Assembly: GCF_003334255.1 (NCBI RefSeq)
Contig: NZ_QOWU01000024.1
DNA from: Escherichia coli
Lineage (GTDB): Bacteria; Pseudomonadota; Gammaproteobacteria; Enterobacterales; Enterobacteriaceae
Strand: one strand, 5' to 3'
DNA: 64,000 nt
Part shown: in pieces, positions 41,917-48,970 of the stretch
Numbering within the stretch: the first letter of the stretch is position 1
Layout of the letters: every line of letters begins with the position of its first letter
Position numbers and translations under genes: made by a program
Notes under the pieces: model-generated
Seen by the model: the letters and a program-made list of their open reading frames with translations, nothing else
Told to the model about the DNA's origin: nothing
The model's database searches: none

Positions 41917-43302
41917 TTACTTGCCTGTGACCGCTGCTGCCGTTCCTGGCACCATCAGCTCTGTAGCAACGATAACAATCACCAAACCAACAAGCACCGG
42001 TACCGAGGTGCGTTTTACGACTTCAAACGGCGAGATCTTCGCCATCCCGGCAACCGCAACGACTACGCCAGAAACGGGCGAAAGGGTACGGCCAAGGTTT
42101 GACGCCTGCAGCATCGGGATAGTCAAATACGCCGGGTTAATGCCGGAAGAGTGCGCCAGTTTCGGGATCATCTCAACAAACGCATAAAACGGCGCATTGC
42201 CTGAACCGGTCGTGACTGCCGCCAGCATTGTCAGAATCACCAATACCAGCATCAGGATGATACTCGCCGAACCAAACGAGGTAGCGATAGAAATCAGACT
42301 TTGAATAAAGCCGATGGTGCTAAGCCCCTGAGCGAATACCCCAGCGGCAACCAGCAGCATCACCACGTTAGCAAACGCATCTGCCATCCCGCGATAAGCC
42401 ACTTCCAGACCAGAGAAAACTTTCTGGGTATTAAAGCTGCGGAGGAACTCCAGAATGGAGGCAATCAGCATACAAATCACCAGAATAGTGATGATGTGTA
42501 ATTGCGGACCCCATTTACCGTCAAAAATCAGTACACCGATGATCGGCGTGAACGGCAAAATGGCATAAAACGCAGGAGCAGTGGTGGTGATTTCACTGAC
42601 ATCTAACATTTCATGAGAGATGTGCTCTTTTTTATCCAGATAACGTTGCCAGAAGAAGTGGGCGATCGCCATGCCGATAATTGCAGCAATTGAGATAGGC
42701 AGCGTCGTTTTGAAGGCGAAGTCAATCAGCGACATTTCGGAAGCTTGCGCCGCCAGCACCACATCCCCTGAAGTCGGTGCGAGAATAATCGCCGCCGGGG
42801 AGGCACAAATGGCAGCAGCTGCGCCACGACTGATACCAACGTTTACCATCACCGGAAATAGGGTTGCCATCAGCAAAACACCCAGACCGGTTGCGGAAGA
42901 GACGGCCAGAGACATCAGACAGGCGACAAAATAGGCGGCAATCATCAGCAGGTAAGGGGAGTTAATATACTGCAATGGTTTTGACGCCAGCTTGACCACC
43001 ATATCATTCGCGCCGATATGGGTCATGTAAGCGGCAAATCCACACAGCATCATAATCATCATGCCGAGGTCGCCGCCGCGGCTCATTAGTAATATTTTAA
43101 CGTATTCAACGATATCCGTGGCGCTGTAGCCTGTTGAAGCCTGGCTGGACGGTAACACTTTGTGCCCCATAATGGCACTGATAATCAGCAATAACAGGCC
43201 ACCGATAAATAACACACCAGTGGCGGAATACCCTTTAATGATGTAGCGAGCTACACCCACAATAACCACAACCCCAATAAGGAGCTCAATGAATGTCAGC
43301 AT
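41917..43302 (-). CDS. dcuC: Anaerobic C4-dicarboxylate transporter
   Basis: 461-aa polytopic membrane ORF recognised as DcuC; intact, with no insertion. Confidence 0.9.
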   Translation of the reverse strand: MLTFIELLIGVVVIVGVARYIIKGYSATGVLFIGGLLLLIISAIMGHKVLPSSQASTGYSATDIVEYVKILLMSRGGDLGMMIMMLCGFAAYMTHIGANDMVVKLASKPLQYINSPYLLMIAAYFVACLMSLAVSSATGLGVLLMATLFPVMVNVGISRGAAAAICASPAAIILAPTSGDVVLAAQASEMSLIDFAFKTTLPISIAAIIGMAIAHFFWQRYLDKKEHISHEMLDVSEITTTAPAFYAILPFTPIIGVLIFDGKWGPQLHIITILVICMLIASILEFLRSFNTQKVFSGLEVAYRGMADAFANVVMLLVAAGVFAQGLSTIGFIQSLISIATSFGSASIILMLVLVILTMLAAVTTGSGNAPFYAFVEMIPKLAHSSGINPAYLTIPMLQASNLGRTLSPVSGVVVAVAGMAKISPFEVVKRTSVPVLVGLVIVIVATELMVPGTAAAVTGK

Positions 43303-43890: not shown

Positions 43891-44451
43891 ATGAACGTGA
43901 GTAAATATGTCGCTATCTTTTCCTTTGTTTTTATTCAGTTAATCAGCGTTGGTAAAGTTTTTGCTAACGCAGATGAGTGGATGACAACGTTTAGAGAAAA
44001 TATTGCACAAACCTGGCAACAGCCTGAACATTATGATTTATATATTCCTGCCATCACCTGGCATGCACGTTTCGCTTACGACAAAGAAAAAACCGATCGC
44101 TATAACGAGCGACCGTGGGGTGGCGGTTTTGGCCTGTCGCGTTGGGATGAAAAAGGAAACTGGCATGGCCTGTATGCCATGGCATTTAAGGACTCGTGGA
44201 ACAAATGGGAACCGATTGCCGGATACGGATGGGAAAGTACCTGGCGACCGCTGGCGGATGAAAATTTTCATTTAGGTCTGGGATTCACCGCTGGCGTAAC
44301 GGCACGCGATAACTGGAATTACATCCCTCTCCCGGTTCTACTGCCATTGGCCTCCGTGGGTTATGGCCCAGTGACTTTTCAGATGACCTACATTCCGGGT
44401 ACCTACAACAATGGCAATGTGTACTTTGCCTGGATGCGCTTTCAGTTTTGA
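43891..44451 (+). CDS. pagP: Outer-membrane lipid A palmitoyltransferase
   Basis: Start trimmed to [17 protein letters not shown] (signal peptide), 186 aa; recognised as PagP (CrcA). Confidence 0.9.
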
Positions 44452-44625
44452 GACAAATGAAGTTTTAGTAACTTCTTTAAAATCAATAGCTAAAATAAGT
44501 AACATCAAAAATAACGCGACTTTTATCACTTTTTAGTAAAGTTACACTGGACAAAGCGTACCACAATTGGTGTACTGGTAACCGACACAGCATTTGTGTC
44601 TATTTTTCATGTAAAGGTAATTTTG

Positions 44626-44835
44626 ATGTCTAAGATTAAAGGTAACGTTAAGTGGTTTAATGAGTCCAAAGGATTCGGTTTCATTACTCCGGAAGACGGC
44701 AGCAAAGACGTGTTCGTACACTTCTCTGCAATCCAGACTAATGGTTTTAAAACTCTTGCTGAAGGTCAGCGCGTAGAGTTCGAAATCACTAACGGTGCCA
44801 AAGGCCCTTCTGCTGCAAACGTAATCGCTCTGTAA
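44626..44835 (+). CDS. cspE: Cold-shock-domain protein E
   Basis: Start trimmed to [20 protein letters not shown] (RNP1 motif), 69 aa. Confidence 0.95.
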
Positions 44836-44854
44836 GATACGTCAGCAAGAATTC

Positions 44855-44884
44855 AAAACCCGCTTAATCAGCGGGTTTTTTTTG
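44855..44884. terminator. Bidirectional rho-independent terminator between cspE and crcB
   Basis: aaaacccgc ttaatca gcgggttttttttgg: 6-bp GC stem flanked by an A-run and a T-run, between convergent genes. Confidence 0.75.
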
Positions 44885-44888
44885 GTCT

Positions 44889-45272
44889 TTAGTGTGCGGT
44901 TGAGGCCGAAAACAGCCAGAATGCCAGTGCGGTCATGGCAAAAGACCCCAGAAGGTTGACGAAAACGTTCAGTAATGCCCAGCCAAAGCGGCCCTCTTGT
45001 AACAAAAACACCACTTCTGCCGAAAATGTTGAGAAGGTTGTTAGACCGCCACAAAATCCGGTGGTGATTAATACTTTCCACACTGGATCAATGTTCGTCA
45101 TCCTGCTGAACCATGCGAATCCTATTCCTATGATGAATGCCCCAATCAGGTTTGCTGTCAGCGTCCCCAACGGAATCGCCTGATGCAGTGGGTTAAATCG
45201 CATACTTAACAGCCATCTCGCCACGCTTCCCGTACCACCGCCAATAAAAACTGCTAAAAGAAGTTGTAACAC
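44889..45272 (-). CDS. crcB: Fluoride ion channel (Fluc)
   Basis: 127-aa membrane ORF recognised as CrcB. Confidence 0.9.
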
Positions 45273-45358
45273 TGCAAAATCCTGCTATTTGATTTGTATG
45301 AGTGATAAGTGTAACGCCGAATAATCGTCGTTGGCGAATTTTACGACTCTGACAGGAG

Positions 45359-46152
45359 GTGGCAATGCTGGTTGCCGCAGGACAGTTTGCTGTTACATCT
45401 GTGTGGGAAAAGAACGCTGAGATTTGTGCCTCGTTGATGGCGCAGGCGGCGGAAAACGACGTATCGCTGTTTGTCCTGCCGGAAGCATTGCTGGCGCGCG
45501 ATGATCATGATGCAGATCTATCGGTTAAATCAGCACAGCTGCTGGAAGGCGAATTCCTCGGACTTTACGGCGAGAAAGTAAACGTAACATGATGACGACA
45601 ATTCTGACGATTCATGTTCCTTCAACGCCGGGGCGCGCATGGAATATGCTGGTGGCACTTCAGGCAGGAAACATCGTCGCCCGTTATGCCAAACTGCATC
45701 TCTATGATGCATTTGCCATTCAGGAATCACGCCGTGTTGATGCTGGTAATGAAATCGCTCCGTTACTGGAGGTGGAAGGGATGAAGGTCGGTCTGATGAC
45801 CTGTTATGACTTACGCTTTCCAGAGCTGGCGCTGGCACAGGCATTACAGGGAGCTGAAATCCTGGTACTTCCTGCCGCCTGGGTTCGCGGGCCGCTCAAA
45901 GAGCATCACTGGTCAACGTTGCTTGCCGCTCGTGCGCTGGATACCACCTGTTATATGGTGGCGGCGGGGGAGTGCGGGAACAAAAATATCGGTCAAAGCC
46001 GGATTATAGATCCCTTTGGCGTCACCATTGCGGCAGCGTCAGAAATGCCTGCACTCATTATGGCGGAAGTGACGCCCGAACGTGTGCGTCAGGTGCGCGC
46101 GCAACTGCCCGTCTTAAACAACCGTCGCTTTGCGCCGCCGCAATTATTATGA
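45359..46152 (+). pseudogene. ybeM: Frameshifted C-N hydrolase (nitrilase-superfamily) gene
   Basis: Two co-directional ORFs (45359-45592 and 45589-46152) in different frames meet at an ATGA overlap and together resemble one nitrilase-family protein. Confidence 0.8.
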
Positions 46153-46280
46153 TGTTTTTTTACTCGGCGCTTGATTCACCTTGTTACAGATTGCTATTGT
46201 GTGCGCGCGTCGAATGACCGTTAATATTCTCTGGTTTTTAAGGCGCGTTCTGTTGCCGGTTATATGTCAAGAAGGTATCT

Positions 46281-46484
46281 ATGGGTGAGATTAGTATTAC
46301 CAAACTGCTGGTAGTTGCGGCGCTGGTCGTTCTGCTGTTTGGGACTAAGAAGTTACGTACGCTGGGCGGAGACCTTGGAGCGGCCATTAAAGGGTTCAAG
46401 AAGGCGATGAATGATGACGATGCTGCGGCGAAAAAAGGCGCAGACGTTGATCTTCAGGCTGAAAAGCTCTCTCATAAAGAGTGA
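46281..46484 (+). CDS. tatE: Twin-arginine translocase subunit TatE
   Basis: 67-aa ORF with N-terminal transmembrane helix and amphipathic helix (TatA paralog). Confidence 0.9.
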
Positions 46485-46523
46485 CGTGGCGAGCAGGACG
46501 CTCCCTCAATATCTTGTTCGATA

Positions 46524-46556
46524 CAAAAAACCCGCTTCAAAAAGCGGGTTTTTTAT
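46524..46556. terminator. Bidirectional rho-independent terminator between tatE and lipA
   Basis: aaaaaacccgctt caaaa agcgggttttttat between convergent genes. Confidence 0.75.
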
Positions 46557-46584
46557 CAGACAGATGTAAGTAATTATTACAGGA

Positions 46585-47550
46585 TTACTTAACTTCCATC
46601 CCTTTCGCCTGCAAATCGGCGTGGTAAGAAGAGCGGACAAACGGACCGCATGCAGCATGGGTAAAGCCCATCGCCAGCGCTTCGGCTTTCATTTCGTCGA
46701 ACTCATCCGGGCTAACGTAACGTTGAACCGGCAGGTGATGGCGGCTTGGCTGCAAATATTGCCCCAGCGTTAACATCGTCACACCATGACGGCGCAGGTC
46801 GCGCATTACCTCAATAATTTCTTCATTGGTTTCACCCAGTCCCACCATCAGACCAGACTTGGTCGGGATTTCCGGATGCGCTTCTTTAAAGCGTTCCAGC
46901 AGCTTCAGCGACCAGTTGTAATCTGCACCAGGCCGTACCTGACGGTAAATACGCGGTACGTTTTCCAGGTTATGGTTGAACACATCTGGTGGCGTTGCAG
47001 TCAGAATATCCAGAGCACGATCCATACGACCGCGGAAATCCGGCACCAGAGTTTCAATTTTGATTTGCGGGCTTTTTTCCCGAATGGCAGTAATGCAATC
47101 CGCAAAGTGCTGGGCACCGCCATCGCGCAGGTCATCACGGTCAACGGAGGTGATAACCACATAACGCAGCGCCATATCGGCAATGGTCTGCGCCAGTTTC
47201 ACTGGTTCATTGGCATCAGGAGCTACCGGGCGACCGTGGGCAACATCACAGAACGGACAACGGCGGGTACAAATAGCGCCGAGGATCATAAACGTTGCTG
47301 TGCCGTGGTTGAAGCATTCCGCCAGGTTAGGGCAGGAGGCTTCCTCGCAGACAGAATGCAGGCCATTTTTGCGCATTGCGGCTTTGATGCCCTGGATACG
47401 TGTAGAGTCCGCTGGAAGCTTGATTTTCATCCATTCCGGCTTGCGCAGCAGGGCTTCGCGCTCTGTTGCCACGTTTTTAACCGGGATAAGGGCCATCTTA
47501 TCGGCATCGCGGTATTTAACACCGCGTTCCATCACAATGGGTTTACTCAT
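46585..47550 (-). CDS. lipA: Lipoyl synthase (radical SAM)
   Basis: 321-aa ORF with the CxxxCxxC radical-SAM motif (CTRRCPFC) and the N-terminal cysteine cluster. Confidence 0.95.
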
Positions 47551-47758: not shown

Positions 47759-48712
47759 TCAAAATGCATTACGGATAACATCTATTACTCCGTGCAGGAT
47801 GGGATCACGCAGGCTGAATTTGTTGTAGTGGATAGAGAAATCTATTTGCTCCTCATTTAAGGACGGAAAAGGCAGTTTTTCCAGCGGCCAGCAGCGGCTA
47901 AACAGGTTATAAAAACGGCTGGGAATAATCGCTAACATGTCACTGTTGGCAACCAGTGCAGCGATTGTCAAAATGTTGTAGCTGGTGAAATTGATTTGCC
48001 GGTCCGGAAACATTTCTTGAACTCTCTGCCGCAGACCGCTGAAATTTTGCTCTTCCGGTAACAGAAGTACATGCGCAGCGTTGTCGATAGTCTCTCTGTC
48101 ATCTTCTAAAGAGAGTAGTGGATTTCCCTCGCGGCAAATTAACACCATATTGTCGGTGAACAGAACATGATGTTGCACCGTACGATTGGTGCAAAACATG
48201 TTATCGATGATGAGATCGGTTTGAAACTGACTGAGTTGGTTTTCCGCGTCGCTGATGGGCGGGTTGCGCAGTAAAAGCTGCGGATAGTGAGTTTTAATCG
48301 CCCGATAGATGACAGGAAGGACCAGTGCTCCGACCGAGGGAGTGGTCGCAATAGTTATCGTTCGTTGCTTATCATAGCTTCCTTCGATATCCAGCGCGCC
48401 AAGAATGGACTCAAGGCCCTGACTGATATACTCATGTAGATGCATCGCAAATGCGGTAGGAGTGACACCCTGGCCTTTGCGAATAAACAATGGGTCAGGG
48501 AATATAACGCGCAGTTTCTGAATAGACTGACTGATTGCCGAGGGGGTCAGATTAAGCACTTTCGCTGCATTAACGATCCCTTTATGTACATATACAGCTT
48601 CAAAAATAGTCAGAAGGTTAAGATCAATATTTCGTAAGGTTGTAAATATTTGTGGTTTACCTTCTGACGACTTTCTGCTTAAACAGGGTTCAATTTGATT
48701 ATTACTATCCAC
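47759..48712 (-). CDS. ybeF: LysR-type transcriptional regulator
   Basis: 317-aa ORF with LysR-type helix-turn-helix (NAAKVLNLTPSAISQSIQKLR); AT-rich. Confidence 0.8.
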   Translation of the reverse strand: MDSNNQIEPCLSRKSSEGKPQIFTTLRNIDLNLLTIFEAVYVHKGIVNAAKVLNLTPSAISQSIQKLRVIFPDPLFIRKGQGVTPTAFAMHLHEYISQGLESILGALDIEGSYDKQRTITIATTPSVGALVLPVIYRAIKTHYPQLLLRNPPISDAENQLSQFQTDLIIDNMFCTNRTVQHHVLFTDNMVLICREGNPLLSLEDDRETIDNAAHVLLLPEEQNFSGLRQRVQEMFPDRQINFTSYNILTIAALVANSDMLAIIPSRFYNLFSRCWPLEKLPFPSLNEEQIDFSIHYNKFSLRDPILHGVIDVIRNAF

Positions 48713-48970
48713 GCACTTACTCCAATTTTATTCATGGAAAAATAATATTTAAAAAATTACAATAATCTTATGTCTAATTGGAACGGAACGCTTTTGCTCA
48801 CCATAATCAACTATTTCAATAGGTTAATCAATGGGGTGAGTTACGGAGCAAGGCGTGGCACCGCATTTCTGCAAGTGATAAAGAAAATATACAAACGCGA
48901 AGGAGATGTAAAGCATTAGCAGATATTATGAGTAATGACCCAGTGTAAATTGGGCCATTGATGTATGGAA

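Follow-up and report, generated by a model that had tools for sequence, protein, structure and literature searches.

A single-base deletion divides ybeM of Escherichia coli between two reading frames and probably leaves a young pseudogene

The window analysed here is a stretch of 64,000 nucleotides from an Escherichia coli contig (NZ_QOWU01000024.1), in which ybeM is found within the gene order pagP, cspE, crcB (minus strand), ybeM, tatE and lipA (minus strand). At the position of ybeM the list of open reading frames contains two plus-strand ORFs in different frames, 45359..45592 and 45589..46152 (187 aa), which share the four bases ATGA at 45589-45592, as described in an earlier sequence-only reading. 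The same reading had given the first ORF a length of 77 aa. This is the ORF as listed, counted from a GTG at 45359, but the real start is the ATG at 45365, which yields 75 aa: the GTG directly adjoins the Shine-Dalgarno sequence AGGAGG and is therefore too close to it to be usable as a start, and the RefSeq gene models of identical sequence start at the ATG as well. Within this 75-aa ORF (ORF1) residues 1-66 are authentic, whereas residues 67-75 are read from the wrong frame as LYGEKVNVT, the stop codon being the TGA at 45590-45592. The ATG that starts the second ORF (ORF2) codes for an internal residue, Met76, when the gene is intact. ORF2 includes the conserved segment that the sequence-only reading had pointed out. 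All features are collected in Table 1.

The surroundings of the gene were also scanned for regulatory elements. Between 45150 and 46350 promoter and terminator sites were no more common than in shuffled sequence. In an Rfam scan of 44400-46700 at the gathering threshold, neither a fluoride riboswitch nor any other RNA element was detected in the crcB-ybeM intergenic region; the sole family matched was the cspA thermoregulator (44400-44883, plus strand, 125.6 bits), which covers the cspE leader and gene.

Table 1. Features of the ybeM locus, in coordinates of the window.
Feature	Position	Strand	Basis
Whole ybeM, predicted pseudogene (deaminated glutathione amidase, frameshifted)	45365..46152	+	Full-length identity to a 'frameshifted' RefSeq feature, strain 300709
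Shine-Dalgarno sequence AGGAGG of ybeM	45353..45358	+	Read from the sequence; 6 nt upstream of ATG 45365
N-terminal fragment (ORF1), 75 aa from ATG	45365..45592	+	NF033621 match, residues 3-66
C-terminal fragment (ORF2), 187 aa, residues 76-262 of the intact protein	45589..46152	+	NF033621 match
Deletion junction, one G gone	45563..45564	+	Alignments; GGAC/TTTACGG, intact alleles GGACGTTTACGG
Presumed catalytic Glu40 codon, VLPE motif, fragment 1	45482..45484	+	Aligned with Glu54 of 1EMS
Presumed catalytic Lys110 codon, YAKLHL, fragment 2	45691..45693	+	Aligned with Lys127 of 1EMS
Presumed catalytic nucleophile Cys147 codon, MTCYD, fragment 2	45802..45804	+	Aligned with the CYD motif (Cys169) of 1EMS

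Both ORFs match the NCBIfam profile NF033621, though in different parts of it. Residues 3-66 of ORF1 align to profile positions 2-65 (85.3 bits) and residues 2-186 of ORF2 to positions 76-260 of 260 (344.6 bits). The two ORFs are therefore consecutive parts of a single gene rather than a chance pair, as proposed for the C-N hydrolase ybeM. Each fragment alone scores below the curated cut-off of 355 bits. When a single G is restored (see below), a protein of 262 aa is obtained that equals WP_000959109.1 exactly. With 452 bits over profile positions 2-260 of 260 it exceeds the cut-off of 355, which places it among the deaminated glutathione amidases, and it belongs to the Pfam family CN_hydrolase (PF00795) with a match from residue 3 to 245 (model positions 2-255 of 256, E = 9.4e-41). 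In the window this full-length PF00795 match is divided between two frames.

Among the sequences in the PDB, YbeM is matched best by the Nit domain of C. elegans NitFhit (1EMS, E = 3e-29) and by that of yeast Nit2 (4H5U, E = 1e-26), both distant homologues over about 250 residues. Eukaryotic Nit1, yeast Nit2 and the Nit domain of NitFhit, the latter joined to an additional Fhit domain, have the C-N hydrolase fold and a Glu-Lys-Cys triad as in repaired YbeM, whereas the window copy would be inactivated. In 1EMS, Glu54, Lys127 and Cys169 form what we take to be the catalytic triad of the nitrilase superfamily. The residues of the E. coli protein aligned to them are Glu40, Lys110 and Cys147. No single polypeptide encoded by the window holds all three, given that Glu40 is found in ORF1 and both Lys110 and Cys147 in ORF2. 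Since Glu40 is parted from the other two residues, neither fragment would be expected to be an active enzyme. Judged from its sequence, the locus is to be classed as a pseudogene of the nitrilase / C-N hydrolase superfamily and not as a functional member. The intact E. coli protein was reportedly assayed by Peracchi et al. in 2017. For mammalian Nit1 and yeast Nit2, two reports that cite Peracchi et al. 2017 (PMC5714238, PMC7041631) give the conversion of deaminated glutathione into 2-oxoglutarate and Cys-Gly as an established activity, and a metabolite-repair role has been described for Nit1 as a deaminated glutathione amidase (PMC7041631).

The lesion was determined by aligning the window allele with three others: the intact one of strain YPE10 and those of strain 300709 and K-12 GM4792, both of which carry a frameshift flag. 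This alignment against intact ybeM of other E. coli strains, which the sequence-only reading had suggested as a check, located the indel as a 1-bp deletion of a G between 45563 and 45564 (GGAC(G)TTTACGG). In the coding sequence the G is missing after position 199, i.e. between 199 and 200, in codon 67. It is the sole difference between the window and the intact 789-bp allele encoding WP_000959109.1, and it lies outside any homopolymer run. A frameshift near 45589, as previously assumed, is not correct: the indel is found 26 nt upstream of the ATGA junction.

The distribution of the lesion was followed among complete E. coli genomes. In a megablast search with 45300-46200, the ybeM locus was present in 5,425 of 5,426 genomes and was always annotated as 'deaminated glutathione amidase'. 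The two states of the gene were counted with short junction-centred queries, for which only an exact match reaches at least 99%. The deleted junction (exact 70-mer) occurred in at least 860 of the 5,425 genomes, about one in six, a lower bound since deletion carriers with a SNP inside the 70-mer escape the count. The intact junction (exact 71-mer) was found in 3,553 of the 5,425 genomes, and the remaining genomes, as sampled, all had the intact length together with nearby SNPs. A K-12-specific 70-mer containing both K-12 SNPs (see below) matched exactly in 365 genomes, the sampled ones all being K-12 derivatives. Carriers other than K-12 number roughly 495, which corresponds to roughly 10% of the non-K-12 complete genomes; they come from humans, livestock, river water, farm environments and soil. 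In RefSeq the exact allele of the window, like that of K-12, is entered as a 'frameshifted' pseudogene, and the intact WP_000959109.1 is encoded in BL21(DE3), ETEC H10407, O111:H8 and most other E. coli. The frameshift had been put forward as a convenient strain marker. The 1-bp deletion is indeed a handy marker, however of a sublineage that includes K-12 rather than of a strain, as its presence in at least 860 of 5,425 genomes illustrates.

Some further variants of the region were noted in these genomes. Two hits to the ybeM region fall on sequences catalogued as plasmids, and in some genomes the region occurs twice; these could be misassemblies or duplications. In strain O166:H15 JNE21-003 (L018:3069-5986) ybeM is independently disrupted near its 3' end by the IS21-like element ISEc62 (istA/istB), such that a truncated ybeM CDS and a small remnant are left. 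UTME-9, considered as a second frameshift allele, was dropped, because it is a low-quality assembly in which all genes of the region are frameshifted.

The ybeM pseudogene of K-12 corresponds to the window in its locus, the G deletion between 199 and 200, the two-ORF appearance and the 'frameshifted' flag in RefSeq. K-12 alone has in addition the private nonsynonymous changes T98C (V33A) and T110C (V37A). The window is without both and is thus a non-K-12 carrier; its 22 kb around ybeM match strains G1/2, G6/7 and G8 at 100% identity. In K-12 GM4792 (L008) the two T>C changes correspond to window positions 45462 and 45474, 12 bp apart, and just one other K-12-private SNP (36330) was seen in 20 kb. 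Relaxed constraint or a clustered mutation event could account for the pair. Intact YbeM (WP_000959109.1) of other E. coli has an identical gene context, the window allele being one G short and unable to encode this protein.

Comparison with relatives bears on the age and origin of the deletion. In four strains whose ybeM is intact, 22 kb of sequence departs from the window by just 2-3 SNPs and the G. A 20-kb alignment combined three divergent strains with six close relatives in which the gene is intact and six carriers drawn from three haplotype sub-groups. Between the carriers and these close relatives there are 2-10 SNPs per 20 kb, and the deletion is the sole site dividing the two groups, with zero conflicting sites. 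The outgroup strains O111:H8, ST131 and FHI_NMBU_03 all have the G and a single intact ORF, which indicates that the intact state is ancestral. Based on this alignment, the deletion appears as a young allele of one closely related haplotype group including K-12, compatible with a single origin. Among intact alleles across lineages dN/dS is 0-0.11, indicative of purifying selection, i.e. ybeM is maintained and functional elsewhere in the species. Except for K-12, the carriers are too closely related (at most 10 SNPs per 20 kb) for the expected decay of a pseudogene to show. The earlier view of a recent inactivating frameshift, by which a conserved amidase would have been lost in this lineage, agrees with these data: no change other than the 1-bp deletion separates the window from the intact 789-bp allele, and most strains as well as the outgroups have the gene intact.

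Two other sites around ybeM vary among the compared strains. At window position 43206 (dcuC, minus strand) the window has a T against a C in each of the 14 strains compared, outgroups included; the T is a derived SNP private to the sub-lineage of the window. In ST131 and FHI_NMBU_03 (L014:12262-12582 and L017:12263-12787) the neighbouring regulator gene ybeF (window ~47760-48713) is a pseudogene, truncated and frameshifted, whereas the window and its close relatives have it intact.

We are highly confident that the locus represents one ybeM gene for a Nit1-type deaminated glutathione amidase, which became a pseudogene through the G deletion at codon 67, provides no active amidase and is a young allele. 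Translation from the ATG at 45365 would produce 66 authentic residues and nine wrong ones before it terminates at the TGA, such that the remaining 187 codons would persist solely as an out-of-frame ORF starting at Met76. With Glu40 split from Lys110 and Cys147, an active amidase would not be expected. Re-initiation at ATG 45589 through the ATGA overlap may occur, in which case the 187-aa fragment may be produced. The allele probably persists because the loss of a metabolite-repair enzyme is cheap. PMC7041631 and PMC5714238, citing Peracchi et al. 2017, describe Nit1 loss in mouse, yeast, cell lines and Arabidopsis as being without detrimental consequences, which fits a loss-of-function allele that drifts to appreciable frequency. 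The ybeM frameshift is an already documented pseudogene and its mechanism is ordinary.

Instead of drifting, the loss allele could have been favoured by selection or its fragments could have gained a function. Either would explain the occurrence of one deletion in roughly 10% of the non-K-12 genomes; we nonetheless consider this improbable. We also give very little credence to the reading that the fragments retain a residual function or have a new one: the 187-aa ORF would be coupled at the ATGA, and its product would reassemble with the 75-aa fragment or act non-catalytically and thereby drive the spread of the allele to its present share of non-K-12 genomes. Translational coupling is classically associated with ATGA stop-start overlaps, and over-expressed small ybeM-derived fragments can affect cells (PMC6206680). 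However, the ATG at 45589 is simply that of Met76 within the intact gene, so that the overlap arose by chance, where the shifted frame meets its first stop, and inspection of the sequence revealed no recognisable Shine-Dalgarno sequence before this ATG. Moreover, residues 67-75 are missing and the catalytic Glu belongs to the other chain. The routine use of a deletion-insertion at ybeM in MG1655 also points against a function of the fragments.

Similarly, it is very unlikely that the layout is under selection as a case of programmed -1 ribosomal frameshifting or as a true two-gene arrangement. The sequence-only reading had stated that the same two-ORF organisation in other strains would imply one of these. 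The layout is indeed common to at least 860 genomes, the ORFs share the ATGA, and both frames are open across 64 nt (45529-45592). A scan of this overlap, however, yielded no slippery heptamer of the form X XXY YYZ, and the single intact ORF is the state of the majority and of the outgroups. Conservation of the frameshifted layout across divergent lineages is not seen either, the sampled carriers all belonging to one near-identical haplotype group. Since no more than 2-10 SNPs per 20 kb lie between them and relatives with the intact gene, the common layout reflects recent descent rather than conservation. Together with the fit to a single origin and the lack of a frameshift signal, this removes the implication drawn from the shared layout, even though the layout itself does recur in other strains. 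For genes with programmed -1 frameshifting (dnaX, IS3-transposase type) both a slippery heptamer in the zero frame and a conserved layout would be expected, neither of which is found at ybeM. Furthermore, the split parts Glu40 from Lys110 and Cys147, and RefSeq annotates the locus as a pseudogene. A sequencing or assembly error in an organism whose gene is in reality intact is hardly conceivable: single-base indels are the commonest assembly error and the low-quality assembly UTME-9 has frameshifts in every gene of the ybeM region, but the G is missing outside a homopolymer, the junction is identical in 860 independent complete assemblies, many of them K-12, and the neighbouring genes are intact in the inspected carrier records.

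Inactivation of a single ybeM gene thus remains our preferred reading, and the annotation should be one frameshifted pseudogene instead of two genes. Beyond correct annotation the frameshift matters little. BL21 and most wild E. coli have an enzyme for the repair of deaminated glutathione that K-12 and its relatives would lack. This difference bears on studies that take K-12 as a model of how glutathione is damaged and repaired, as well as on ybeM as a 'neutral' insertion site: in MG1655 ybeM has been called a pseudogene and serves as a neutral site for the insertion of tetA (PMC7242477). Other reports concern the region in different contexts. NsrR ChIP peaks were found within ybeM in CFT073 and K-12 at about +345 from the start, roughly at window position 45710, and ybeM was down-regulated in CFT073 under NO stress (PMC5320621). 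Expression of a 29-bp ybeM fragment from pBAD24 was reported to cause filamentation (PMC6206680). The window contains an out-of-frame 56-aa ORF within ybeM (45614-45784, plus strand) that begins with MFLQRRGAH, which is exactly the filamentation peptide of that report.
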